Below, piece after piece: positions 97 through 34,781 of a DNA stretch of 37,738 bases. Source of the DNA: an uncultured Bacteroidales bacterium (lineage in GTDB: Bacteria; Bacteroidota; Bacteroidia; Bacteroidales; JBBRXJ01); assembly GCA_964606415.1 (NCBI GenBank), contig CAZSGN010000002.1, forward strand, positions 1 to 37,738, written 5' to 3'. Position numbers and translations under genes: made by a program. The notes below the pieces were generated by a model. The model searched no databases. It was not told where the DNA came from and saw only the letters and a list, made by a program, of their open reading frames with translations. Numbering within the stretch: position 1 is the stretch's first letter; each line of letters begins with the position of its first letter.

Positions 97-1212
97 CTAT
101 GATTCCAATATTCTGATCAAATCATCATTTATATAAAATACTTCTTTTCCGCTTTTTTTAGGTCTGAGAATTTTATGTTTTTCTAATTCATCAAAATATT
201 TTGTTAATGTGGTCCTTGATGACTTATCCAAAATTCCTCCTAATACATTTTGTTTGATATATGGTTGACTGAATAATATTTCATTCACCTCTTTACTATA
301 CCATTTTATTCGTTCTTTTGCATAATCCAATGTGCTCTCCATTTGTTCAAGTATCTCATTTATCAATGTATTTGTTAATAATGATGTTTTTTCAATCGCA
401 TCCAACATGAAAGTGATCCATTCTTTCCATGAGTTTCTTTGGGTTACTGTTGCCAATTTAAAATAATAATCATCTTTGTTGAGAATAATATATTTTGATA
501 AATAGAGGATAGGATAAGAGAGGAGTCCTTTATTTATCAAGTACAAGATATTTAAAATTCTTCCAGTCCTTCCGTTTCCGTCTTGAAATGGATGTATCGC
601 TTCAAATTGATAGTGCCCAACACACATTTTAAGTAATGGGTCAATTGGATATTTTTCATCGTTGTTTAGAAATTCGAGTAAATTTTCAATGAGTTCTTCA
701 ATTTTCTGTTCTCCTCTTGGAGGTGTATATACGATTCCCCCTGATTTAAATTCACTACTTCCTTTTCGGATTACAACTTTTGCTTGAGGAGATCGAAATT
801 CTTGTGTAGTTTCTTTAATTTGATTAAATATAGTTATAATGAGTTTTTTCTCAATCTTTTGCGAGTCTTTTAATTTGCTGAATCCACTCCAAAGTGCTTC
901 CCGGTATTTCAATACTTCTTTTGTGGCTGCATCTATTTTTCCTTCATAATTCTTTTCAGATATTGCTTTGTATAGTTCATCTTCAGTTGTGAATATGTTT
1001 TCGATTTCGGTAGAAGATTTAGCTTCCTGAAGAGCAATTGTATTTATAAGCATGAATGGATTCGGTAATCTATTAATGTTTCCATTCACATTAGCGAGAG
1101 CTCTAGATGCTATTACAAGTTTTTTAAGGATATCTTTATCTTCAAAAACATCATTTCTCGCGGTTAATAAAGGCAAGTCATTATATGGAATATTTCTGTC
1201 AAAATTATTCAT
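97..1212 (-). CDS. Fic family protein (class II autoinhibited type, with a C-terminal winged-helix-like tail)
   Basis: ORF 97..1218. Canonical Fic active-site motif HPFQDGNGRTGR (HxFx[D/E]GNGRxxR). N-terminal STEIEN fits the [S/T]xxxE[G/N] inhibitory-helix motif. The track start at 1218 is TTG; the first ATG (MNNFDR) is at 1212. Confidence 0.9.
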   Translation of the reverse strand: MNNFDRNIPYNDLPLLTARNDVFEDKDILKKLVIASRALANVNGNINRLPNPFMLINTIALQEAKSSTEIENIFTTEDELYKAISEKNYEGKIDAATKEVLKYREALWSGFSKLKDSQKIEKKLIITIFNQIKETTQEFRSPQAKVVIRKGSSEFKSGGIVYTPPRGEQKIEELIENLLEFLNNDEKYPIDPLLKMCVGHYQFEAIHPFQDGNGRTGRILNILYLINKGLLSYPILYLSKYIILNKDDYYFKLATVTQRNSWKEWITFMLDAIEKTSLLTNTLINEILEQMESTLDYAKERIKWYSKEVNEILFSQPYIKQNVLGGILDKSSRTTLTKYFDELEKHKILRPKKSGKEVFYINDDLIRILES

Positions 1213-1220
1213 ACACAAAT

Positions 1221-9611: not shown

Positions 9612-12152
9612 ATGAAGTACACACCCACCATATTCTTCTTTCTTTTTTATTTAACTTTTAACTCCTATACCCAGGATAAAGTTGACAGTCTCCAATACCA
9701 ATTAAAAGATGCCGATGGTAAAGAAAAAACAAAAATCTACCTGGCACTTGCCGAAGCTAACGCGGAAAATAATTTCGAGGAAAGCATTAATTACAGCAAA
9801 GAAGCTCTTAATCTGGCACAAAAACAAAAAGACAAGCAATTAATAGCCAAAAGCTATCAAAAAATGGGGCAATCATATTATTATGATTATCAAAATGACA
9901 AGGCCATTGAGTATTACAAGAAAAGCCTTGATATACTAAAAGAAATAGATGACAAAAAAGGAATGATCTTTTCGCTAAATCATCTTGGGCTGACCCATTA
10001 TTTCAATAATGATTTCTCCAAATCCAAATCTTATCTTGAACAAGCAATAGCCTTAAATAAAAACGATCGTTTCCCTGAAGAAAAAGCTTTTTCTTATCGT
10101 TACCTGGGGCGAACGATTAATAAAACCGGTGACGCTAAAAAAGCAATGGACTATTATAAAAAAGCGCTCGGAATCTATCAGGATATTGACTCAAAAAAAG
10201 GGATTGCAGGCATCAGAAACAGCATTGGCTTAATCTATTTTGGCTGGGACCAATATGACTCAGCTATTGCTCAATATAAAATATCGGCCAAACTCAGAGA
10301 AACCTCCGGCGATCAAAAAGGCGCCGGAATAGCACTGGTCAATACCGGCAATGTCTACTGGCGCTGGGGGAAATACGATCAAGCCATCAGCAACTACCAG
10401 GAAGCTTCAAAAATATTTGAAGAGATTGGCTTCAAAAATGGCATTGCAAGTTGCCTTAATAATATCGGCCTTATATATGAAAATCTAACGAAAGGCTCTT
10501 TAACTGCAGCAAATCTAAAGAATTTCAAAAAAGCGATGCAATACCATCAAGAAGCGCTGAAAGTAAGAAAAGAGCTGGGTGATCAGTTGGAGATAGCCCA
10601 TTCGCTTAATAATATTGGCACTGTTCATATCAAAATACAAGAAAATAAACTAAAAGAAAAATTTGGCCAGAACTGGCGCGATTCTGTTCCCAAACTTAAA
10701 AAAGAAGAAATACCTCATTTCCATCAGGCACGGGAAAATTACCAGGAAGCCTACAACCTTTTCGAGGATGCCAATTATAAAGCTGGCATTGCCAAAGCCT
10801 TAAACAATTTAGGGCGGGTCCATGCATACCTCCAACAAAACAACAAAGCATTGCAAAACCTGGAACGGGCACTTCAAATTAGTAAAGAACTAAATAATCA
10901 ATATGAACTGGCTGTCAATTATTTTCAAATCGGCATTGCCCAAAAGCAAAAAGGGAATTATCAAAATGCACTGGAAAAATTAAATAAAGCACTGGACATC
11001 GCGAACAGAAACAACCTTAATGAATTCCGGAAATCTGCCTATGAGAACATCTCCGAAATCTATGAAGCTCAAAATAATTATCAATCTGCACTACACGCCC
11101 ACAAGCGCTTCATTGACGTAAGAGATAGTATTTTCAACCAGGAAAATGCCAAATTCATTGAAGAACTACAAACCAAATATCAAACAGATAAAAAAGAACA
11201 AGAGATCAAAATCCTGAATCAGGAACAAAAACTTAACGAACAACAAATCAGACAACAAAGATTATTCCTCTACGGTGCTATTGTCATCGTAATTGTTATA
11301 GGTGGCTTTTTGCTATTGGTTTTCAGACAAAACAATCAAATTAAAAAAGCCTATCAACTACTGGAAGAACGAAATACTTTAATCTCGAAACAAAAAGAAG
11401 AAATTACTGACAGCATCCACTATGCCAGCAGAATACAAAGAGCGGTCTTGCCTCAAACCAAAATGCTGGAAAAAAATCTTAATGACTTTTTTATTCTCTG
11501 GCGCCCGCGGGACATTGTCAGTGGTGACTTTTACTGGTTCACCGAACATCAGAACAAATTAATTATAGTTACGGCTGATTGCACCGGCCATGGGGTGCCC
11601 GGGGCTTTCATGAGCATGCTGGGTGTTTCCTTCCTGAATGAAATTCTATCCAGACATAAAGAAGTCCATGCAGAACAAATATTAAACGAATTGCGGGACC
11701 AGGTAATCAACTCCCTGCATCAAACAGGAAAAACAGGAGAAAGCTCTGATGGTATGGATTTGGCTCTTTATATCATGGACAGGGACAATATGAAACTTGA
11801 ATACGCCGGGGCAAACAACCCCCTGGTTATTATACGCAACAAGGAAATCATCCAATACAAAGCGGACAAAATGCCGATTGGCATCTATATAAAAGCAGAC
11901 ATCCCTTTCAAACGCCACGATATTGATATCCAGGAAGGCGATTGCATTTACACTTTTTCAGATGGTTACCAGGATCAATTTGGGGGCAAAGGAAAAAAAT
12001 TCATGATCAAACGAATGAAAAGCATGTTATTGGAAAATCATGATAAACCAATGACAGAACAAAAAGCGCTATATGATAAAACCATTGTTGACTGGATGGG
12101 CGAAGAATTCGAACAAATTGACGATATCCTTTTGGTGGGTGTACGGGTATAA
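9612..12152 (+). CDS. TPR-repeat / single-TM / PP2C-type (SpoIIE family) protein serine phosphatase
   Basis: N-terminal signal/anchor and many TPR-like repeats (A..Y..AL.I pattern). Coiled coil, then TM LFLYGAIVIVIVIGGFLLLVF. C-terminal SpoIIE/PP2C motifs SRIQRAVLP, SGDFYWF, ADCTGHGVPGAFMS, FSDGYQDQ, DDILLVGVRV. Confidence 0.9.
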   Translation: MKYTPTIFFFLFYLTFNSYTQDKVDSLQYQLKDADGKEKTKIYLALAEANAENNFEESINYSKEALNLAQKQKDKQLIAKSYQKMGQSYYYDYQNDKAIEYYKKSLDILKEIDDKKGMIFSLNHLGLTHYFNNDFSKSKSYLEQAIALNKNDRFPEEKAFSYRYLGRTINKTGDAKKAMDYYKKALGIYQDIDSKKGIAGIRNSIGLIYFGWDQYDSAIAQYKISAKLRETSGDQKGAGIALVNTGNVYWRWGKYDQAISNYQEASKIFEEIGFKNGIASCLNNIGLIYENLTKGSLTAANLKNFKKAMQYHQEALKVRKELGDQLEIAHSLNNIGTVHIKIQENKLKEKFGQNWRDSVPKLKKEEIPHFHQARENYQEAYNLFEDANYKAGIAKALNNLGRVHAYLQQNNKALQNLERALQISKELNNQYELAVNYFQIGIAQKQKGNYQNALEKLNKALDIANRNNLNEFRKSAYENISEIYEAQNNYQSALHAHKRFIDVRDSIFNQENAKFIEELQTKYQTDKKEQEIKILNQEQKLNEQQIRQQRLFLYGAIVIVIVIGGFLLLVFRQNNQIKKAYQLLEERNTLISKQKEEITDSIHYASRIQRAVLPQTKMLEKNLNDFFILWRPRDIVSGDFYWFTEHQNKLIIVTADCTGHGVPGAFMSMLGVSFLNEILSRHKEVHAEQILNELRDQVINSLHQTGKTGESSDGMDLALYIMDRDNMKLEYAGANNPLVIIRNKEIIQYKADKMPIGIYIKADIPFKRHDIDIQEGDCIYTFSDGYQDQFGGKGKKFMIKRMKSMLLENHDKPMTEQKALYDKTIVDWMGEEFEQIDDILLVGVRV

Positions 12153-13170
12153 AATAAACAATTCTTTCACCCGGATTCTATTCCTGGCTTTTCTTATTCT
12201 TTTTTACTCTTCAGGATGCGGAAGAAAAACCGATATGAAACTCGGGGTTGTTTTTGATACCTACCAAACTGATCGCTGGCAACGTGACAAAGCAATAATG
12301 AAAGAAATTGCTGATCAAAAAGGCATTCAACTCATGACAGCCGAAGCACAGGGAGATCCCTTTATACAATATGCACAAGCCAGAAAAATGATCAAAAATG
12401 GAGTAGATGTATTAATCATTATTGCTGTTGACCAAGACCTGGCTTCGCATATTGTAAATCTGTCAAATAATCATCATATACCGGTTATTGCTTATGACCG
12501 GCTAATAAATGATGCCAACCTGGACTATTACATATCTTTTAATCCAAGAGACATAGGGCATCTACAAGGCTCCTATTTCAAAAAACAAAAACCAAAAGGA
12601 AAATACATATTGATTAACGGGCCACGCTCAGACAATAATTCTACAAGAATACATCATGGACAATTAGAGGTTTTAAAAGAAGCAGACTCATCCGGATACT
12701 CAACAAATATTCTTTACCAGACATACTGTTCAGAATGGTCCGAATATCAGGGCTATCATCATATTCTAAACTGCATTGAAGCCTATGGTGCAAATTTTGA
12801 TGTCGTTATTGCAGGTAATGATCAAATTGCCCAGGGGGTGATCAGGGGGTTAGAAGAATATCAATTTCAACATGTATTGATTGGCGGACAAGACACCGAT
12901 TTGTCTTCCATTCGCTTTATATTAGATGGCAGACAAACCATGACGATCTTAAAACCAATCAGGAAAATTGCAGAAAAAGCCATTAATGCAGCAATAAGCC
13001 TTCATCATGACACTTTACCGGATCGTTTAATTAATCATCAGACAGACAACAATAAAGCAATGGTGCCAACTTTTTTCTTAAAGCCCATCATTGTAGATAA
13101 AGAGAACATTTTTCATGTTGTTAAAAAATATAAGCTAATAGATGAACCAATTAAAAATTTCGTCGAATAA
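12139..13170 (+). CDS. XylF-like periplasmic sugar-binding protein (type I PBP), predicted lipoprotein, without partner transporter genes
   Basis: Blocks DRWQRD, AYDRLINDANLDYYISFNP and GGQDTDLSSIRFILDGRQTMTILKPI parallel E. coli XylF as I recall it. Lipobox LFYSSGC. In-frame GTG at 12139 is preferred because it gives a 26-aa lipoprotein signal; the alternative ATG at 12073 would overlap the upstream gene by 80 nt. Confidence 0.8.
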   Translation: MYGYKINNSFTRILFLAFLILFYSSGCGRKTDMKLGVVFDTYQTDRWQRDKAIMKEIADQKGIQLMTAEAQGDPFIQYAQARKMIKNGVDVLIIIAVDQDLASHIVNLSNNHHIPVIAYDRLINDANLDYYISFNPRDIGHLQGSYFKKQKPKGKYILINGPRSDNNSTRIHHGQLEVLKEADSSGYSTNILYQTYCSEWSEYQGYHHILNCIEAYGANFDVVIAGNDQIAQGVIRGLEEYQFQHVLIGGQDTDLSSIRFILDGRQTMTILKPIRKIAEKAINAAISLHHDTLPDRLINHQTDNNKAMVPTFFLKPIIVDKENIFHVVKKYKLIDEPIKNFVE

Positions 13171-14447
13171 TGCAGTCACATGCCTTGTATATTCTGATCA
13201 TCCTTATATTTACATTTTTTCAGTCTACAAATAGTCAAGAAAGCAAAGACAGTACAGGAAAAGTTGATATTTTCCCCCTGCCCGTCATTGGGTATTCAGA
13301 AGACAGAGGAATAAAATACGGAGGGATGCTCGGCCTCTACCACTATTCAAAAGACCAACCAAAATCTGAATACAGAAATAAACTGGAGATTGAAGCAAGC
13401 AGAAGCACCAAAGGCAATCATTATTATTCGCTGGAACATCAATACAGAAATCTCCCAAAAGGTTTTAAATTATTCAACTATATCATCTATGACAAGAATA
13501 ATACTGCCCGTTTTTTCGGATTTAACAGCCAAACCCCTATTATGCAGGGACAGGATTTTGACCGTGCTTATTTCTCTTTCAACCGGCAAACATTTAAGGT
13601 ATCAAACAAATTTCACCTATTGATCATCCCCAGGCATCATATTTATCTTACCGGAGGACTCATTTATTATAACGCGAACATTTCTCCAACCAACCTGGAA
13701 AAACTCCCTGCTACATACTCAAACGACACGACCACCCTTTTCGATGAATACATTAAGCATTTAATTATACCAAAAGATGAAGTTAACGGTGGACAATCAT
13801 TATACGCGCAAGCAGGCCTGCTGATTGATAACAGAGAAAGACCTGTTAATCCCCAACGTGGCTACTTTTCGGAGATTATTTTCATTGCAGGACAAACAGA
13901 TCATACCATAAATAAAAATTTTATTAAAGCAAGTTTTACTCATCAACATTACCTTCCACTAATAAAAAACCGGTTAACAGGAGCCATCCGGATGAGCTAT
14001 CAACCACTCCTTGACGGAAAATTACCTTACTACATGCTGCCTGTCTTTTATAGTTCTATTCAGAATATTGAAGAATTAGGAGGCGAGAACACACTCCGGG
14101 GAATGAATCAAAACAGAATTCTTTCTGATGGCTTTCTCCTGAGTAACCTGGAACTTCGGTTAAGCCTTTGGGATCATACATTATTCAATTATGCTTATCA
14201 AACTTTTCTTGTATTATTTAGTGACATCGGCTTAATTACCCAGGAATACAATTATCCCCAACACCTATTACCCCCAACAATCAAACAAAACATATCAAGC
14301 AATCAATCACCTTATTACCAAACAATTGGAGCCGGGGCTTATGTTGTAATCAGGGAAAATATGGTTGCCAAAGCAGATATAGGAAAGGAAATTGACGCGC
14401 CATATCCTAACTGGTATATTTCTACCGGAATGCGCTTTTTGTTTTAG
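13170..14447 (+). CDS. Omp85/BamA-TamA family outer-membrane beta-barrel without POTRA domains
   Basis: Signal peptide, the surface-antigen (D15) motif LGGENTLRGMNQNR, and a C-terminal aromatic ...GMRFLF. The start overlaps the upstream stop (TAATG at 13168..13172). Confidence 0.75.
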   Translation: MQSHALYILIILIFTFFQSTNSQESKDSTGKVDIFPLPVIGYSEDRGIKYGGMLGLYHYSKDQPKSEYRNKLEIEASRSTKGNHYYSLEHQYRNLPKGFKLFNYIIYDKNNTARFFGFNSQTPIMQGQDFDRAYFSFNRQTFKVSNKFHLLIIPRHHIYLTGGLIYYNANISPTNLEKLPATYSNDTTTLFDEYIKHLIIPKDEVNGGQSLYAQAGLLIDNRERPVNPQRGYFSEIIFIAGQTDHTINKNFIKASFTHQHYLPLIKNRLTGAIRMSYQPLLDGKLPYYMLPVFYSSIQNIEELGGENTLRGMNQNRILSDGFLLSNLELRLSLWDHTLFNYAYQTFLVLFSDIGLITQEYNYPQHLLPPTIKQNISSNQSPYYQTIGAGAYVVIRENMVAKADIGKEIDAPYPNWYISTGMRFLF

Positions 14448-14552
14448 AAAAATATCTTTTTTTTAATAATTGCCTGAATAAAGAAAACACACGGACGGCT
14501 TATTTGCTGAAAATTATTTTATAAATTTACAGTATTATAAATGCAAGGATAG

Positions 14553-14960
14553 ATGAAACAATTAATAAGAAAAACAAGTAAAGAAACAAATTACTATCCC
14601 TTCATTGATTTTAATCCGGACACAGGAAAATGGATTATTTCCGGGGAATCATACATGGAAAACCCCTGTGATTTTTATGCTCCTGTCATTGAATGGGTCA
14701 AATCATTCATTGAAACCAAGGAAACACCTATTCATTTAAAAATACAACTAAACTATTTTAACACAAGCACGACCCGTTGTCTCCTCTCTATATTTAACTC
14801 AATAAGAAAACATAAGGAGATGGGAAAGACATACCGGATACAATGGGAATTAGAAGATGATGATCCTGGTTTAATTGAAGAAATAGAGGATTTACAAGTC
14901 GAAGCCAACGTTAAAATTAATATTATTGAAAAAAACAAAAGGGCTAAATACAATCACTAA
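14553..14960 (+). CDS. SiaC-like regulatory phosphoprotein (DUF1987 family), paralog 1
   Basis: 135 aa. GESYMENP...FYAPVIEWVKSF...LKIQLNYFNTSTTRCLL parallels P. aeruginosa SiaC (GDSYPEN...LLYLNTSS) as recalled. It is collinear with the paralog at 30016..30405. Confidence 0.75.
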   Translation: MKQLIRKTSKETNYYPFIDFNPDTGKWIISGESYMENPCDFYAPVIEWVKSFIETKETPIHLKIQLNYFNTSTTRCLLSIFNSIRKHKEMGKTYRIQWELEDDDPGLIEEIEDLQVEANVKINIIEKNKRAKYNH

Positions 14961-15013
14961 TTCATAACCTCAAGAATATTTATATGCAAATAACCAACTT
15001 CAAAAACAAAAAA

Positions 15014-15589
15014 ATGAGGATTAAAAACTTATTTATCCTGATTCTCGTCCTGCCTCTTTTAAGCAGTTGCGGCTACAATAAAATGGTCACCCTGGATGAA
15101 CAAATAGCTGCCCAGTGGGGACAGGTTGAAAATGTTTACCAGCGAAGAGCAGACCTGATTCCGAACCTTGTAAATACAGTAAAAGGGTATGCTGATTTTG
15201 AGAAAGAGACGCTTACAGAAGTTATAGAAGCCCGCTCAAAGGCTACATCTGTTAATGTAGATCCAGATAAACTGTCGCCAGGTTCAATCCAACAATTTCA
15301 GCAAGCTCAACAGGGATTAAGCTCAGCCTTGAGCAGGTTAATGGTTGTGGTCGAGCGATATCCTGAATTAAAAGCAAACCAAAACTTCCTGGATCTACAA
15401 GCTCAACTGGAAGGCACAGAGAACAGGATTAGTGTTGAGCGGCGAAAATACAATGAAGCGGTTCGCCAATATAATACTTATATCCGCAGTTTCCCGAGAA
15501 ATATCCTTGCCTCCATTTTTAATTTTGAAAAGAAAGGCTATTTTGAGGCTGACGAAGGCGCATCTAAAACCCCAGAAGTAAACTTTTAA
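15014..15589 (+). CDS. lemA: LemA family protein (lipoprotein/anchor)
   Basis: MRIKNLFILILVLPLLSSCGYN, then LDEQIAAQWGQVENVYQRRADLIPNLVNTVKGYADFEKETL, typical of LemA. ATG at 15014 is preferred over 14984. Confidence 0.9.
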   Translation: MRIKNLFILILVLPLLSSCGYNKMVTLDEQIAAQWGQVENVYQRRADLIPNLVNTVKGYADFEKETLTEVIEARSKATSVNVDPDKLSPGSIQQFQQAQQGLSSALSRLMVVVERYPELKANQNFLDLQAQLEGTENRISVERRKYNEAVRQYNTYIRSFPRNILASIFNFEKKGYFEADEGASKTPEVNF

Positions 15590-15590
15590 C

Positions 15591-16025
15591 ATGGAAGCAA
15601 TAGACAAGTTCACCCCCGAAGAACGAAAACGTATTACCAACGCCATAGAAGAGGCCGAACTGGATACATCCGGAGAAATCAGGGTGCATATTGAAAATCA
15701 CTGCAAAGGTGAAGTACTGGATCGTGCAGCCTTTTTATTCAAAAAACTAAAAATGCATCAAACCCTCTTAAGAAATGGCGTTCTGATTTACCTTGCATTA
15801 AAGGATCACCAATTTGCCATATTGGGTGATGCCGGCATTAATGAAAAAGTACCGGAGGGATTCTGGGACGATATCAAAGATAAAATGCTGAAACATTTCC
15901 GTGAAGAAAATTACACCCAGGGCCTTGAAGAAGGCATCCGTGATGCCGGCAAACAGCTTAAAGAACATTTTCCCTATCAAAAAGATGATATCAATGAACT
16001 AAAAAATGATATTTCTTTTGGCTGA
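15591..16025 (+). CDS. TPM (TLP18.3/Psb32/MOLO-1) domain protein, soluble form
   Basis: GEIRVHIE...NGVLIYLALKDHQFAILGDAGI is a TPM-domain pattern. The gene lies immediately after LemA (2-nt gap), the usual LemA-TPM arrangement. Confidence 0.8.
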   Translation: MEAIDKFTPEERKRITNAIEEAELDTSGEIRVHIENHCKGEVLDRAAFLFKKLKMHQTLLRNGVLIYLALKDHQFAILGDAGINEKVPEGFWDDIKDKMLKHFREENYTQGLEEGIRDAGKQLKEHFPYQKDDINELKNDISFG

Positions 16026-16075
16026 TAATCACCTTTCACAGTGATACATGCTTAATGTAAAAAAAAACAAAAACC

Positions 16076-16864
16076 ATGAAATTAACTCATTCTATATTTC
16101 TATCCTTTTTATTATTACTATACCAGGCTCCCCTGGCAGCCATCCCTGAAAAACCAAGCCCTCCAAAGCTGGTTAACGACTTTGCCAACTTTCTGCCCAA
16201 GGACAAGAGCCACCAGCTGGAACAAATCCTAAAAGATTTCGAGCAAAAAACATCGACTCAAATTGCCGTAGTCACAGTAAAAGATCTTGAAGGATACGCG
16301 ATTTCAGACTATGCTTTTCGGCTTGGAGAACAATGGGGTATTGGCCAGGAGAAAAAAGACAATGGCATTCTGATCCTCATAAGGCCAAAAACAAAAGACA
16401 CCAAAGGACGAGCTTTTATTGCAACAGGCTATGGCCTGGAAGGAGCCGTGCCGGATGTGGTTGCCAAAAGAATCGTAGACCAGGAAATGATTCCAAGATT
16501 TAAAGAAAACAAATATTACGAGGGCATACTGGCCTCCGTCAAAGTACTCTTTGAGCTAACAAAAGGAGAATACACAGCCGAGCAATACATCCAACAAAAA
16601 GAATCAACCAACCTCGCCCCCTTAATTATATTAGCCATTCTGTTGTTTATTGTTATTCGTAATCTTTCAAGAGCCAACCGCTACAGAAAAAGATCAGTCG
16701 GACACAGCATGCCTTTCATGACAGCTTTATTCCTGGGATCAGCAATGGGCTCAGGCCGTGGCAGCTGGAATAACTTTAGCTCAGGCGGAGGCGGCGGAAT
16801 GGGCGGCTTCGGTGGCTTTGGCGGCGGCGGATTTGGCGGTGGTGGTGCTGGAGGCAGTTGGTAG
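16076..16864 (+). CDS. TPM domain protein, YgcG-like (signal peptide, TM, Gly-rich tail)
   Basis: LVNDFANFL...TSTQIAVVTV...NGILILI...FIATGYGLEGAVPD is a TPM pattern. TM LAPLIILAILLFIVI. C-terminal GGGGGMGGFGGFGGGGFGGGGAGGSW. Confidence 0.85.
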   Translation: MKLTHSIFLSFLLLLYQAPLAAIPEKPSPPKLVNDFANFLPKDKSHQLEQILKDFEQKTSTQIAVVTVKDLEGYAISDYAFRLGEQWGIGQEKKDNGILILIRPKTKDTKGRAFIATGYGLEGAVPDVVAKRIVDQEMIPRFKENKYYEGILASVKVLFELTKGEYTAEQYIQQKESTNLAPLIILAILLFIVIRNLSRANRYRKRSVGHSMPFMTALFLGSAMGSGRGSWNNFSSGGGGGMGGFGGFGGGGFGGGGAGGSW

Positions 16865-20692: not shown

Positions 20693-22036
20693 TTACTGTG
20701 AAAAGAAAAAATCTTTTAACTGATCTATTTCTTCCGAAGTCATATCAATTTCGCCATTAAAAAAACGATCCATAGCACTAAGCACCTCGTCAAAAGACAG
20801 ATAACCATCATCATCCTTGTCAAATTGTTTATACTTATCCGGAATTTCGACATTAGAAATTGCCGCGTAATATTTATTGCTTAAACTACTCCGCATAATG
20901 GCTTTCACATCCTCACGATCAACCGCCTTATTATTGAGCATTTCGATCAAATCATCGCTGCTCAGGGCCACACCATGCTCGTTCACCCAAGCACCTTCAG
21001 GAGTATCTTCCTCCTTATCAAGATAATTAGGCACACCATCATTATCATCATCAAAGGGACAGCCTACAGAATCAACTTCCACGCCATCCGGAGTTCCCGG
21101 GCATTCATCAACCCGGTCAAAAACCATGTCATTATCTTCGTCACCATACATGGTATAATCAAAATCAACATCAGCAAAAAGCTTTTTTACAGTTGTTGTT
21201 TCATCATCCGAAAACAAATCATAATGAAAAGTTACATAGCTGAAACCATACATATCATTTCCTTTCTTTCCAATAACACCTTTCGTGTTTTTATGGCTGA
21301 CATGATCAATCAAATCGGTCAGGGCATAGTGTAAAGAAGTACCAATCATTAAATTAGCCCTGTCTGTAACTTTAAAATCTACACCTATCTCAAAAGGAAT
21401 GGCCAGCGAATTTTGCGCATACTTTCCAAGGCCATAATCCAATTCCTGGCGGACATCTGTCTCATAACTATAATCGCGTGTAATGATATCCCCTTGCGTA
21501 TTTCTAATGGTGCCATCCGGGTAAAACTGATAAGCATCTCCATTATCCGCGTAAATATCTGTTTTTGTAACAAATTGAAACAACTCAATACCTGCACTAA
21601 CAAAAGGATGGATGGTCTTTTCAGGAGGAATAATGTGTTCAAAACTATATTGAATGTTCAGTCCAAATGTAGTAAACTCGGAACTAAAATTCATCTGCTC
21701 AGAGATTGGGGTATATTGCTGTCCTGATAACTTTCCTAACAAAAGAATAAAAAAGTTACTTTTAAAAAAATGATCATTATCAAGAAAAGTCGATACATTA
21801 ATTTTAACAGCACTATTTCCACTAAGCATAGGTTGCTTATTCTTTATATCACCATAATATCTCAATACCCCAGGACCAACACCGAACACAGGCATATAAA
21901 CCGGATTCTCAACCTCTACTTCTTCTTCCAGCAATTTTTCATAAAGATCTTCTTGCGCCTGTCCCCATTCAGGGAAAACAAAGACAAGCACTAATCCCGT
22001 CAAGAAAAATCTTAAAAAATTAGTTACCTGTACCAT
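20693..22036 (-). CDS. Outer-membrane beta-barrel protein with thrombospondin type 3 repeats and a C-terminal EF-hand (OmpA-like architecture lacking an OmpA_C domain)
   Basis: Signal peptide ...PEWGQAQ and an alternating-hydrophobic barrel region. TSP3 repeats DEDNDMVFDRVDECPGTPDG and DDDNDGVPNYLDKEED. Canonical EF-hand loop DKDDDGYLSFDE. Confidence 0.7.
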   Translation of the reverse strand: MVQVTNFLRFFLTGLVLVFVFPEWGQAQEDLYEKLLEEEVEVENPVYMPVFGVGPGVLRYYGDIKNKQPMLSGNSAVKINVSTFLDNDHFFKSNFFILLLGKLSGQQYTPISEQMNFSSEFTTFGLNIQYSFEHIIPPEKTIHPFVSAGIELFQFVTKTDIYADNGDAYQFYPDGTIRNTQGDIITRDYSYETDVRQELDYGLGKYAQNSLAIPFEIGVDFKVTDRANLMIGTSLHYALTDLIDHVSHKNTKGVIGKKGNDMYGFSYVTFHYDLFSDDETTTVKKLFADVDFDYTMYGDEDNDMVFDRVDECPGTPDGVEVDSVGCPFDDDNDGVPNYLDKEEDTPEGAWVNEHGVALSSDDLIEMLNNKAVDREDVKAIMRSSLSNKYYAAISNVEIPDKYKQFDKDDDGYLSFDEVLSAMDRFFNGEIDMTSEEIDQLKDFFFSQ

Positions 22037-23508
22037 TTTTGATTTGAGATCATTAAAGCTTCCTGCACGGTAATCCTGCTGCCATCATTATAAGCAGAAA
22101 CAAATGCATCATCAATTGATGTCGTATTCCATATATGTACCCTATAATCCCTGGCTGCTTTGTAAATATCAAAAGACCCAACCGAATACTTATACCAACC
22201 TTCATGCCGCTCTCTTTTCACTTGTTTATCGAGATCATACTCCTTAAAATAACGATCAATATCAACTGGTTTATGCCCTGCAGCTAACTGCACCCTGTAA
22301 TAAACACCTGACTGGGGCTGAAGCAAATCCGATTCATCCCCATTAACCTTTCCATATCGCTGTTCTATTGATTGTTGCCCCTGACGCTCAATCTCTTCTT
22401 CGTTCGATTCTAAAGCATCCTCCTCAACAAGTTGGTCATCCAATTCCTGTGACCCTTTTTCATCTTCATCAACTTTTTCCTCCTCTTGCTGTTCCTCAGC
22501 CATTTGTTCTTCAGCGTCAATAAACAAGTCTTCATCCTGCTCGTTGGACTCCCCCGGCAGATCATCCAGTGAAGCCAATAAATTTTCAAGCTCTTCATCG
22601 GACATCTCCGGCAGCTGCACATCCTTCTGAGTAACAGGAATACTTTTTGTTTCAGAACCATCAATATATGAAAAAGAACCATCAATTCTTATATTCTCGG
22701 AAACAGAATGCTCAGGCTTCGGAATCAATTTATAAGAAACAACAAAATAATCTTCTGGCGGCAAATTCATCCAGAGAAATTTCAATGTCTGGTCTTTAAA
22801 TGTAAAGATTCCACTTTTCTTATTAATGCTTTCAGCAATATATCCTGAAGGAATCTCTTCCTGAATTTTAGCAAACTTGCCACGGTCTTTTTTATGTACA
22901 AGCAAATTAACAACTATTCCGCCATCCTTTTTTACCGGTTTTTGGCGAATGGCTGTCACCTGATCCGGTTGTTTATCTCCAAGCTCCGGGACAATTTTCT
23001 CTTCAAACTCATTAATATCAACAATTAATGAAGGGTCAATGTCCGTAGATGGATCAATATTAATACGGGTAGGCGACATCTTCAGCGTCCGCCGTTCATT
23101 ATTCTCGATATAATCAAAACTCCCAGACATTTTAAAATCCCCTTTCAGTCTTTGATCAACCTTTACATTATAACTAAAAGAGATTGTTGGTTTAGAAGGT
23201 AATTTTAACCATATAAGCTTCACCTTATTATCATTAAACCGAAACTCAGCATTATCAGTATTAACAGAACTGGCCTTAAGTCCGGCAGGTAATTTCTGCT
23301 GGAAACGAGAAAAGCTTGATATTGCCCCTTTTTCAATGGTCACATTAACTTCAAACTCCTCTCCTGCTTCAACAGTTTCAGGAACATCCATTTTTGAAGA
23401 AACATTCTCACTAAAGAGCGTGTTCATAAAAAGCACCACGACCATATGTACGAAAAGCACAAAAATTCTGATCATATCAGCTAACATTGTTTTATACAAT
23501 ATTAGCAA
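22024..23508 (-). CDS. SPOR domain protein with two N-terminal Ig-like repeats and an acidic linker
   Basis: C-terminal GVYYRVQLAAGHKP...GWYKYSVGSFDIYKAARDY...DAFVSAYNDG is SPOR-like. There are two homologous ~110-aa repeats and an E/D-rich linker. The start could be 23508, 23487 or 23475. The stop overlaps the downstream gene by 13 nt. Confidence 0.7.
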   Translation of the reverse strand: MLILYKTMLADMIRIFVLFVHMVVVLFMNTLFSENVSSKMDVPETVEAGEEFEVNVTIEKGAISSFSRFQQKLPAGLKASSVNTDNAEFRFNDNKVKLIWLKLPSKPTISFSYNVKVDQRLKGDFKMSGSFDYIENNERRTLKMSPTRINIDPSTDIDPSLIVDINEFEEKIVPELGDKQPDQVTAIRQKPVKKDGGIVVNLLVHKKDRGKFAKIQEEIPSGYIAESINKKSGIFTFKDQTLKFLWMNLPPEDYFVVSYKLIPKPEHSVSENIRIDGSFSYIDGSETKSIPVTQKDVQLPEMSDEELENLLASLDDLPGESNEQDEDLFIDAEEQMAEEQQEEEKVDEDEKGSQELDDQLVEEDALESNEEEIERQGQQSIEQRYGKVNGDESDLLQPQSGVYYRVQLAAGHKPVDIDRYFKEYDLDKQVKRERHEGWYKYSVGSFDIYKAARDYRVHIWNTTSIDDAFVSAYNDGSRITVQEALMISNQKWYR

Positions 23509-30015: not shown

Positions 30016-30405
30016 TCACTCATTCATAGGAATCTTATTAATTTCCATATCAGTCTCTACACTGTAATCATGAATATCATCCAGCATATCATAATCTTCA
30101 GGATCATAATACCAATTAACCGTCACACCAGCTCCTTTGGTCTTATACTCGTATAAAATTTCAAGCATATAGAGCAACATTTTAGATGAACTGGTGTTGT
30201 AATAGATTAATTTAATATTCAATTCAAAATCACCCTTATCTTCAGCCACATATTGTTTCATCCATTCTAATACGGGCATGTAGAAAGCATTAGGCTCTTC
30301 CATAAAAGACTCACCCTCAATCACTCCCATCCCCATTTCAACACTAAGACGAACAACAGGCGAATAAGGTTCATCAACAATTCTATTTATTACAAGATTT
30401 TCCAT
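30016..30405 (-). CDS. SiaC-like regulatory phosphoprotein (DUF1987 family), paralog 2
   Basis: 129 aa. GESFMEEP...FYMPVLEWMKQY...LNIKLIYYNTSSSKMLL. It aligns without gaps to the 14553 product, with GES[Y/F]ME at 31-36 and N70-T71-S72 in both. Confidence 0.75.
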   Translation of the reverse strand: MENLVINRIVDEPYSPVVRLSVEMGMGVIEGESFMEEPNAFYMPVLEWMKQYVAEDKGDFELNIKLIYYNTSSSKMLLYMLEILYEYKTKGAGVTVNWYYDPEDYDMLDDIHDYSVETDMEINKIPMNE

Positions 30406-30581
30406 TGGCCTAGTCCCCCTGTACTATGAAAAAGAAACATAATAAACATTTCATTCTCCCTATTATTTATTAAACGAACGAGCTCATTTTAAGATAATCA
30501 TCAACTATATCCGGATATATACACAAAAAAAGCTTTGAGGTTATGGTCTATATCAATGCTAAATGAATTCATATAAACCTT

Positions 30582-31115
30582 CTATTTATCATTGTCAATG
30601 CCTATTTTCAGAAAAAACCAGGCACTCTGACCATCACTCATATCAAAAAAATCATATTCCAGTTTACCATCAGCGATTAATGCTGCTTGTATCAACCCTA
30701 CATTGGCACCTGTTTTTTCCTTAATAACCCTTTTCCGGTTATTTCTTTTAAAATCTCTCAATTCCTCACGCTCCAATTGATTAATTTTCATGCAACGATC
30801 GTTCAGGAATTGCTGATTTTTTTTCTCAATAAGATTTCCTGAAACAATATAGTAACTATCATTTTTCTTTTCCAAAGCAAGCATACCAACACCAGCATCT
30901 TTATCCAAACGCTTAATACGCTGCCCGGAATAATGATAAATATTGTGAGAAATCTCAATGAATACACTAATGATTCTTTTTCTAAGTGCAGCCTTCAAAG
31001 AGCAAGCATTAATAAACTCTATAAAAAGAGTTATAACCTGATTATCTACAATCCCCTTGTAAGACCAGACTAAGTCCTGACCCAAAACCTTATGATATCT
31101 ATAATTATCAATCAC
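30582..31115 (-). CDS. Small GHKL-like protein kinase candidate, SiaB-like
   Basis: 177 aa, directly upstream of a DUF1987 gene as in siaB-siaC. EISHNIYHY resembles the N-box (ExxxNxxH) of SpoIIAB/RsbW-type kinases and KTGANVGL resembles a G2-box. The assignment is by architecture and weak motifs only. Confidence 0.55.
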   Translation of the reverse strand: MIDNYRYHKVLGQDLVWSYKGIVDNQVITLFIEFINACSLKAALRKRIISVFIEISHNIYHYSGQRIKRLDKDAGVGMLALEKKNDSYYIVSGNLIEKKNQQFLNDRCMKINQLEREELRDFKRNNRKRVIKEKTGANVGLIQAALIADGKLEYDFFDMSDGQSAWFFLKIGIDNDK

Positions 31116-31195
31116 CGTCAGCTTTACTCGATTAAAAAAAATTCCTTTGTAAATTTAAGCATTTAATAATAAAAAGATTAGGAATAAAATAAAAA

Positions 31196-31210
31196 CCAAA
31201 TTGAGCAATT
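31196..31210 (+). repeat. Fragment of the MITE/REP-like repeat (left terminus only)
   Basis: ccaaattgagcaatt is identical to the left end of the 24324 copy. The match breaks off after 15 nt. Confidence 0.3.
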
Positions 31211-31434
31211 ACCCCCTTCGTTCATAAGCTATAGGTTCTGTTCAATCAAGGAACCGTCTTCCTGGATTGGATCAACTCATCAATCTCATCAATTAAAAGC
31301 CTGGTCAAACAATCATGGATGACATTTATTTGTTTCCATAACTTTTCTGAATTATTATCTTAAAATCTTTCAAACATTTAACAATTTGACCCTATAATAC
31401 ATAAAATAAGCCTTATTCAATGAAAAAATGTTAT

Positions 31435-33117: not shown

Positions 33118-33927
33118 ATGACCATACTTGAATTATCCATTCTCACATTTTTTCAATCTTTCGAGCTCCCGGCAGACTCCCTGCAATTCGAAAAGGTTAA
33201 GGAATTCCCACTTTCTTTTAATTACCAGCAATCACTAACAGATCCCTTAGGGAATGCCTATTTTATCCAGGATGAAATATTAATCAAACACATGCCCGGT
33301 AAAAACAAAAAAATCTCTTTCAGTAATTCAGAATTTGGAACAATCAGTTTACTGGACGTATCTGATCCAATGAAATTACTTCTCTATTACAAGGACTATA
33401 ATATGATCCTGTTTTTAGACAATAACCTGTCAGAACTGCTAAGTCCTATATCTCTTGATGATCTTGGACACGAAAACGTCCGGCTTGCCTGCTCATCCAG
33501 GGAAGGAAGTTTTTGGATATACGATGAGCAAAGCGGACAACTTTTCTCATATAATGAAAACTTACATCTAACCAATAAAAGCATTTCAATCCATTCAATC
33601 ACTGAAGGAGAAATAGAGCCCAATCTTTTATTAGAAAGAGGAGAAAAAGTTTATCTGAACATACCTGATTTCGGCATTTTAGTATTCAATCACCTTGGCG
33701 GGTATTTACATACGATCCCCCTTATCAACTTGGAAACATTTCAGATTGACAACCAGAAAGTGGTCTACTACAATGAACACACGGTTTTCGAATACAGCCC
33801 CTTTACACAAGAAACAACTTCATTTGACATCCCGGACACAACAAATGTTACTCATTCAACAATACATAAAGATCAATTATACATCTTTCATAAAGATCAT
33901 TACCAGATCTACCAAATAAAAAAATAA
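33118..33927 (+). CDS. Hypothetical protein (beta-rich, no recognisable motif)
   Basis: 269-aa ORF tightly packed with the downstream kinase gene (8-nt gap), with coding-like composition. An in-frame stop at 33109 precludes a longer N-terminus. Confidence 0.55.
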   Translation: MTILELSILTFFQSFELPADSLQFEKVKEFPLSFNYQQSLTDPLGNAYFIQDEILIKHMPGKNKKISFSNSEFGTISLLDVSDPMKLLLYYKDYNMILFLDNNLSELLSPISLDDLGHENVRLACSSREGSFWIYDEQSGQLFSYNENLHLTNKSISIHSITEGEIEPNLLLERGEKVYLNIPDFGILVFNHLGGYLHTIPLINLETFQIDNQKVVYYNEHTVFEYSPFTQETTSFDIPDTTNVTHSTIHKDQLYIFHKDHYQIYQIKK

Positions 33928-34707: not shown

Positions 34708-34781
34708 TCCTCAGTAGCTCAGTTGGTTAGAGCATCTGGCTGTTAACCAGAGGGTTGTTGGTTCGAGTCCAACCTGAGGAG
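34708..34781 (+). tRNA. tRNA-Asn (anticodon GTT)
   Basis: The 74-nt cloverleaf was folded by hand: acceptor tcctcag/ctgagga, D arm gctc-agttggtta-gagc, anticodon arm tctgg-ctGTTaa-ccaga, T arm gttgg-ttcgagt-ccaac, discriminator g. CCA is not encoded. Confidence 0.95.

Follow-up and report, generated by a model that had tools for sequence, protein, structure and literature searches.

A SiaB/SiaC-type kinase and phospho-acceptor pair in a 37.7-kb window from an uncultured Bacteroidales bacterium, the probable core of a partner switch without a diguanylate cyclase

The DNA considered here is a stretch of 37,738 nucleotides from an uncultured Bacteroidales bacterium (assembly GCA_964606415.1, contig CAZSGN010000002.1, positions 1 to 37,738 of the forward strand), hereafter the window. 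Its subject is a pair of neighbouring genes, siaB and siaC1, whose products appear from their sequences to be the kinase and the phospho-acceptor of a SiaB/SiaC-type partner switch. The kind of module, by analogy, is that characterised in Pseudomonas aeruginosa, where SiaABCD (PA0169-PA0172) controls the diguanylate cyclase SiaD by partner switching. Both families were known beforehand under curated models and names, and the pair is an unremarkable representative of a family that is large and already carries a name; suitable annotations would be 'SiaB family protein kinase' and 'SiaC family regulatory phosphoprotein'. The pair is laid out as follows.

30582..31115, reverse strand: siaB, SiaB-family Ser/Thr protein kinase, 177 aa, GTG start, cytoplasmic (assigned from NF038262, DUF6272, 6KKO_A, and an AlphaFold2 model with Foldseek)
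30406..30581, reverse strand: siaB-siaC1 spacer, 176 nt, featureless and unusually long for the family
30016..30405, reverse strand: siaC1, SiaC-family (DUF1987) regulatory phosphoprotein, 129 aa, ATG start, predicted acceptor T71 in N70-T71-S72

The 177-aa protein scores 112 bits with the NCBIfam model NF038262, 'SiaB family protein kinase' (cut-off 85), and 104.7 bits with Pfam DUF6272 (PF19788; threshold 26.6, E 3.8e-30). From sequence alone it also matches PDB 6KKO_A, the SiaB chain of the P. aeruginosa SiaB-SiaC crystal structure (E 1.7e-7). An AlphaFold2 model built on 45 homologs (pLDDT 93.1, pTM 0.87) gave the same chain as its top Foldseek match (E 9e-9, TM-scores 0.74/0.77), followed by the anti-sigma kinases UsfX, SpoIIAB and RsbW at 6-10% identity and TM-scores of 0.44-0.54; as modelled, the kinase adopts a SiaB/GHKL-like (Bergerat-type) anti-sigma-kinase fold. 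Invariant across the 45 homologs are G21, E54, N58 (of the N-box), N94 and G140 (of the G2-like motif). E54 aligns with E61, the predicted catalytic Glu of P. aeruginosa SiaB (PMC7647112). No transmembrane segment was predicted in the 177-aa protein.

The kinase is divergent, with at most 42% identity to all but two close relatives. Those two, an ortholog of 70% identity (848-bp contig) and an identical copy (contig of 2 kb), are the only relatives above 50% identity in very large databases, and single-protein scans for close relatives in genome contigs and in metagenome contigs found none. The lineage is barely sampled; Logan SRR29060565 is among the samples that contain the identical kinase. 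The start codon is GTG in the window and TTG at the identical position in the 70% ortholog (locus L086, position 277), and no in-frame ATG is available near the siaB start.

SiaC1, encoded 176 nt downstream on the same strand, scores 114.5 bits with PF09345 (E 3e-33, gathering threshold 24.5) and matches PDB 6KKO_C (E 9e-12). In that alignment its NTSS motif falls on N67/T68/S69 of P. aeruginosa SiaC, which hold the phosphorylated Thr and form the partner-binding triad (phosphorylation of T68 and its effect are described in PMC7647112 and PMC8457831). The N and T of the N-T-S motif are invariant in all 125 aligned SiaC sequences. A second member of the family is encoded elsewhere in the window.

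14553..14960, forward strand: SiaC2, second SiaC-family paralog, 135 aa, predicted acceptor T71 in N70-T71-S72 (PF09345, E 2e-32)

SiaC2 scores 111.8 bits with PF09345 and also matches 6KKO_C (E 2.2e-11). The two paralogs share 31% identity (83.6 bits), whereas SiaB-linked SiaCs of other genomes reach 105 bits with SiaC1 and 120 bits with SiaC2. Since each resembles SiaB-linked SiaCs elsewhere more than it resembles the other, SiaC1 and SiaC2 are old paralogs.

The spacer within the pair is atypical. Among 93 SiaC genes that directly follow a SiaB in the comparison loci described below, the median gap is 23 nt, and the 176 nt of the window are the second largest; the same 176-nt gap recurs on an independent contig (L088). 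We considered and rejected a regulatory RNA or a terminator here, since the spacer holds no terminator-like site, has no Rfam match and shows no excess folding energy (z-score -0.12).

The length of this spacer, the non-ATG start of the kinase, the separation of the pair from the phosphatase gene and the mere two relatives above 50% identity could together suggest a decaying remnant, that is, a pseudokinase and an orphaned acceptor left after loss of the phosphatase and output genes. Against this, both reading frames are intact and all family-invariant residues are kept in the kinase and in SiaC1. Moreover, the 70% ortholog retains 122 of the 177 kinase positions, including the motifs and the position of the non-ATG start, and the AlphaFold2 model is very confident. 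We regard decay as very improbable.

An earlier note on this DNA, made from its letters and open reading frames (ORFs), had described the pair as SiaB-like and SiaC-like in the siaB-siaC order, and most of its structural statements stood. The two ORFs lie on one strand, 176 nt apart, exactly where it placed them. The two kinase motifs that it had picked out, EISHNIYHY (E54-Y62) and KTGANVGL (K134-L141), are present and meaningful, containing as they do the invariant E54, N58 and G140. The NF038262, DUF6272, PF09345 and 6KKO matches bear out the family assignments and the gene order, and of SiaB, RsbW and SpoIIAB, the proteins with which the note had proposed to compare the kinase, SiaB was the best structural match; the lack of a SiaB/GHKL fold, which would have counted against the note, is clearly not what was found. 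A second SiaC-like paralog does lie at 14553..14960, with PF09345 and the N-T-S motif, and alignment to 6KKO_C predicts a phospho-acceptor Thr in both paralogs. The gene at 9612..12152, 18 kb away, is indeed the only PP2C gene of the window. As the note had also said, the window has no GGDEF gene: no such domain occurs in ORFs of 100 aa or more, and the six-frame translation is free of the GG[DE]EF motif. A cyclase of any type was likewise not found in the window.

To place the pair among its relatives we scanned one genome per GTDB species, seeding the scan with an alignment of a 12-sequence subset, and took 80 SiaB loci for comparison, nearly all from metagenome-assembled genomes (MAGs) of Bacteroidales or other Bacteroidota. 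The SiaB family itself is large (1,638 clusters at 50% identity in an exhaustive search at E<=1e-3). SiaC is present in 72 of the 80 loci, a PP2C phosphatase lies within 10 kb of SiaB in 65-67, and SiaC genes outnumber SiaB genes in 23. The arrangements include PP2C-SiaB-SiaC, SiaB-SiaC-SiaB-SiaC-PP2C-PP2C, SiaB-SiaB-SiaC-PP2C, SiaB-SiaC-SiaB-SiaC-SiaC and PP2C-SiaB-SiaC-SiaC, and one SiaB with two adjacent SiaCs is found in three loci (L014, L057 and L059). The sensor parts of the phosphatases vary (TPR, PAS, Reg_prop/Y_Y_Y, YfiR-like, GAF, Ser/Thr kinase). The existence of fusion proteins, TPR-PP2C-SiaB (P0040, 1024 aa), PP2C-SiaB and SiaB-SiaB-SiaC (about 505 aa), ties the three components together functionally. 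In many members of the SiaB family two SiaB units are fused in tandem (SiaB-SiaB, about 370 aa; the representatives inspected, which include the other fusions, were P0004, P0058, P0077 and P0040).

None of the 80 loci encodes a GGDEF protein; four matches to the GG[DE]EF motif proved to be three type IX secretion system (T9SS)/PKD proteins and one GH31 enzyme. Because GGDEF genes are absent throughout, because multi-paralog sets are the rule and because the phosphatase homologs closest to that of the window are orphans, a dispersed, multi-paralog layout without a cyclase is normal in this setting. The earlier note's tally of one kinase, one phosphatase and two acceptors is thus right for the 37.7-kb window (it is a count within the window, not necessarily for the whole genome), and an excess of acceptors is common, as the 23 loci show; the implied unusualness of the arrangement, and of the missing cyclase, was not borne out.

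The candidate phosphatase and the genes between it and SiaC2 are the following.

9612..12152, forward strand: 846-aa protein with a TPR sensor, one transmembrane segment (residues 552-570) and a PP2C/SpoIIE phosphatase at the C-terminus; candidate for a SiaA-like phosphatase in trans
12073..14447, forward strand: genes for a Peripla_BP_4 lipoprotein-like and an Omp85-like protein, separating the phosphatase from SiaC2 (Pfam)

The SpoIIE domain (PF07228) occupies residues 648-846 of the first protein, which also matches TPR families, and it is the only PP2C (SpoIIE) domain in the window. Of the NCBIfam models that contain a PP2C domain, SiaA (NF038263) fits this protein best, with 183 bits over residues 576-846. 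When its PP2C domain is compared with phosphatases of SiaB/SiaC loci, several of which directly adjoin SiaB or SiaC, the scores are 206-286 bits, and TPR-PP2C genes of like architecture lie 143-197 nt from SiaC in several loci. The similarity to SiaB/SiaC-linked phosphatases, together with SiaA as the best model, marks it by sequence as the right kind of phosphatase. Its most similar named homolog is from Williamwhitmania, a Bacteroidales genus. That it acts in trans as the cognate phosphatase of this pair is a serious possibility that we place somewhat short of even.

The pair itself has the family membership, the kinase fold, the conserved catalytic Glu and Asn, the N-T-S acceptor site and the siaB-siaC gene order, and it belongs to a large, mostly Bacteroidota clade with PP2C/SiaB/SiaC sets and no GGDEF gene. 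We therefore think it probable that its two products, a cytoplasmic GHKL Ser/Thr kinase of SiaB type and a STAS-like phospho-acceptor of SiaC type, form the core of a partner-switching module without a diguanylate cyclase. The coupling of PP2C, SiaB and SiaC across genomes is observed directly, while the enzymatic activities are assigned by analogy.

Several points weigh against this reading. The strict equivalog models all score far below their cut-offs, with 47.3 bits of a required 225 for the kinase (SiaB, NF038264, ortholog of PA0171), 70.5 and 77.4 of 150 for the two SiaC paralogs (NF038265) and 183 of 700 for the phosphatase (SiaA), so strict orthology to the Pseudomonas proteins is not established. 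Since the 176-nt spacer is atypical, co-transcription of siaB and siaC1 is not assured. The phosphatase lies 18 kb from the kinase on the other strand, and its four closest full-length homologs (36-50% identity) are orphans with no SiaB or SiaC within 8-10 kb, so that its pairing with this kinase is a guess; as these homologs all stand alone, an unlinked phosphatase is at the same time typical of its subfamily. The genome may hold further PP2C, SiaB or SiaC genes beyond the window. As SiaB was the criterion by which the 80 loci were picked, the linkage figures are biased. Gene calls in these loci are also crude (longest ORF with greedy removal of overlaps, by which the SiaB call was lost in one locus). 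Finally, the literature searched held no biochemical or other experimental work on the PP2C/SiaB/SiaC sets of Bacteroidota.

If the partner-switch reading is right, the module would work much as in P. aeruginosa (by homology; PMC7647112, PMC7278518, PMC8457831). SiaB dimers would bind unphosphorylated SiaC1 and phosphorylate T71 with ATP, and the phosphorylated SiaC1 would then be released. A membrane PP2C with a periplasmic sensor part would strip the phosphate upon stimulation of the sensor, and unphosphorylated SiaC would bind and modulate a target other than a diguanylate cyclase. With the P. aeruginosa system the window has in common the types of kinase and acceptor, their gene order, the catalytic Glu, the N-T-S motif and the 6KKO matches. 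It also encodes a membrane PP2C whose catalytic region is matched best by the SiaA model, at a score below the cut-off of that model. It differs in lacking a siaD/GGDEF gene, in having two SiaC paralogs and a 176-nt siaB-siaC spacer, and in the phosphatase, which is 18 kb away with a TPR sensor of different N-terminal architecture. Rather than a contiguous siaA-siaB-siaC-siaD, only siaB and siaC are adjacent, and the window proteins are family members, not orthologs, of the P. aeruginosa proteins, as the equivalog scores indicate. The sets of Bacteroidales and other Bacteroidota MAGs share with the window the three families, the absence of a diguanylate cyclase, the multiplicity of paralogs and TPR-PP2C types among the phosphatases; they differ in compactness, with the PP2C usually within 10 kb and a SiaB-SiaC gap of about 23 nt, whereas the components in the window are spread over 21 kb.

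SiaC2 may be a second substrate of the same kinase, which we hold as a tentative possibility. Two genes separate it from the phosphatase, which ends 2.4 kb upstream, and the earlier note had linked SiaC2 with the phosphatase. A conserved operon of the order PP2C-Peripla_BP_4-Omp85-SiaC2 was rejected. The locus of a 50% phosphatase ortholog (L081) keeps the left-hand synteny (two DUF1573 genes, isochorismatase, ADH) and lacks the Peripla_BP_4, Omp85-like and SiaC2 genes beside the phosphatase, and the locus of an 88%-identity SiaC2 ortholog (L085) diverges upstream of SiaC2 beyond about 85 nt, which are conserved. SiaC2 instead belongs to a conserved unit with the genes that follow it. At its longest, the Peripla_BP_4 ORF begins within the PP2C gene and shares the last 80 nt of that gene (12073..12152); its lipobox-like SSGC begins about 45 residues in, and the true start is probably further downstream or a non-ATG codon.

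14984..16864, forward strand: LemA (lipoprotein-like), TPM (144 aa) and TPM (262 aa) genes (Pfam LemA and two TPM_phosphatase matches)

The string SiaC2-LemA-TPM-TPM (14553..16864, forward strand) has gaps of 23, 1 and 50 nt, and the three downstream genes are probably co-transcribed with SiaC2. The 262-aa TPM protein has a signal peptide and a transmembrane segment; the middle one, of 144 aa, has neither. The order SiaC-LemA-TPM-TPM is kept in L085 (212..2527), where the SiaC-LemA gap is 10 nt. The link was seen in none of the 80 SiaB loci, and a scan of metagenome contigs for SiaC2 relatives found none.

A 10-mer, TAAATTTACA, stands before both siaB and SiaC2.

31116..31427, strand not assigned: divergent intergenic region between siaB and a GH3-family gene, with TAAATTTACA at 31148..31157 (reverse strand), 33 nt upstream of the siaB start

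The 10-mer has just one other copy in the window, at 14522..14531 (forward strand), 22 nt upstream of the SiaC2 start; 0.31 matches are expected by chance, and 3 of 100 shuffles reached two. The SiaC2 ortholog locus L085 has it unchanged; in the siaB ortholog locus L086 only its final A is replaced, by G, and there the region around it and the divergent GH3 start are conserved as well. The 10-mer resembles the Bacteroidetes -7 promoter box, TAnnTTTG, and may be a mere promoter element.

These observations bear on whether the window holds one circuit or two. Under the second view, SiaB and SiaC1 would form a self-contained circuit with a phosphatase outside the window, SiaC2 would sit in an operon of its own, SiaC-LemA-TPM-TPM, served by a different kinase and phosphatase encoded elsewhere, and the TPR-PP2C would be an orphan with other substrates. 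The depth of the paralogy (31% identity, 83.6 bits, less than to the SiaCs of other genomes) points this way, as do the phosphatase-SiaC2 proximity that is not kept in the nearest relatives, the orphan state of the four nearest phosphatase homologs examined (four of four), and the conserved SiaC2-LemA-TPM-TPM unit with its own conserved leader. On the other side, the three loci with one SiaB and two adjacent SiaCs make one kinase for two acceptors plausible, similar TPR-PP2C genes do occur 143-197 nt from SiaC and even fused as TPR-PP2C-SiaB, and the 10-mer is found upstream of both siaB and SiaC2 and nowhere else in the window, a weak sign given the shuffles. Taken together, we consider two independent circuits somewhat unlikely.

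A different logic would be that of the anti-sigma kinases SpoIIAB and RsbW, in which the kinase would sequester a sigma factor or other regulator and unphosphorylated SiaC would free it. The RsbU/RsbV/RsbW and SpoIIE/SpoIIAA/SpoIIAB systems do combine, like the window, a GHKL-type Ser/Thr kinase with a small phospho-acceptor and a PP2C phosphatase, and UsfX, SpoIIAB and RsbW are the best structural matches after SiaB. No conserved fourth gene, and so no conserved SiaC-partner gene, was found in the 80 loci, which fits a target encoded elsewhere, for example a sigma factor; the recurrent neighbours (BipA, ABC-F, RlmL-like, FtsX, esterase, CitMHS, DciA) are lineage-specific and apparently unrelated to signalling. 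Yet the matches to the anti-sigma kinases are distant (6-10% identity, TM-scores 0.44-0.54), and in P. aeruginosa it is SiaC, not SiaB, that binds the output (PMC7278518). Nor was a sigma-factor family found in the ORFs of the window, or a sigma-factor gene in the 80 loci when their recurrent or adjacent neighbours were scanned. The acceptor differs too, being a Thr in the N-T-S motif of the DUF1987 fold rather than the STAS Ser of the Rsb and SpoII systems; SiaC has been described as STAS-related (PMC8457831). An anti-sigma role is in our judgement improbable.

With a partner switch of the SiaB/SiaC type as the preferred reading, there remains the matter of outputs. The studies of SiaABC-type switches that we found concern P. 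aeruginosa only, where the output is a diguanylate cyclase; in the literature searched DUF1987 was mentioned only in P. aeruginosa work, and DUF1987 proteins elsewhere are treated only as 'widespread' (PMC8457831). The window is one more example of the Bacteroidota kinase/acceptor/phosphatase sets without a cyclase and so raises the question of their targets, for which it supplies SiaC1 and SiaC2 as clean, small test proteins and, as a single concrete candidate, the link of SiaC2 with LemA-TPM.

Related loci give some idea of what such outputs could be. In a Leptospiraceae MAG (L056, 4553..12365) a GAF-class III adenylate/guanylate cyclase gene begins 6 nt after SiaC, behind an STK-AAA-GAF-PP2C gene and SiaB; from its sequence this is apparently a Sia-type cassette wired to a different nucleotide cyclase. 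That locus shares the SiaB-SiaC core with the window and has its sensor PP2C upstream; it differs in carrying a candidate output, the window having no cyclase. In rumen Bacteroidales MAGs a UDP-glucose/GDP-mannose dehydrogenase gene follows SiaB-SiaC; the gap is 78 nt in L038 and 1-3 nt in L002 (13198..14463), L062 and L076. In L079 a group-1 glycosyltransferase gene lies 8 nt after a lone SiaB. These neighbours may hint at control of polysaccharide synthesis. To judge from these loci, outputs look lineage-specific and SiaC may be a portable adaptor that is connected now to one output, now to another.

Tight coupling downstream of SiaC, the criterion suggested by these loci, leaves LemA-TPM-TPM as the only output candidate of the window. 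That SiaC2 is functionally tied to the LemA-TPM-TPM genes that it precedes is nevertheless unlikely in our estimate. A more elaborate version is a long shot. In it SiaC2 would be a cytoplasmic phospho-switch that controls, or is controlled through, a LemA-TPM-TPM envelope module, with the signal-less 144-aa TPM protein as a possible contact; SiaB and the TPR-PP2C would set its phosphorylation in trans, and SiaC1 would act on a different target. If true, this would be a truly branched Sia-type switch independent of cyclic di-GMP, and the first regulatory handle on the poorly understood LemA/TPM trio.

Other neighbours had been put forward as outputs, namely the divergent GH3 enzyme and the T9SS-peptide, ArsP_2 and SLT genes, and comparison lent them no support. 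GH3 lies divergently upstream of siaB on the contig with the identical protein, as it does in L086, and beside SiaB in none of the 80 related loci. Conserved only in close relatives, this adjacency is ordinary local synteny, and GH3 as an output was rejected as unsupported.

The window has a G+C content of 37% and encodes proteins with T9SS sorting domains, a mark of its origin in the Bacteroidota. Two ORFs, of 494 aa (22024..23508, reverse strand) and 269 aa (33118..33927, forward strand), have no Pfam match, and a third of 447 aa (20693..22036, reverse strand) has only a sub-threshold EF-hand match. At the left edge lies a gene for a Fic/DOC-family protein with Fic_N and SoFic-like C-terminal domains (97..1218, reverse strand), and a single tRNA gene is found at 34708..34781 (forward strand).

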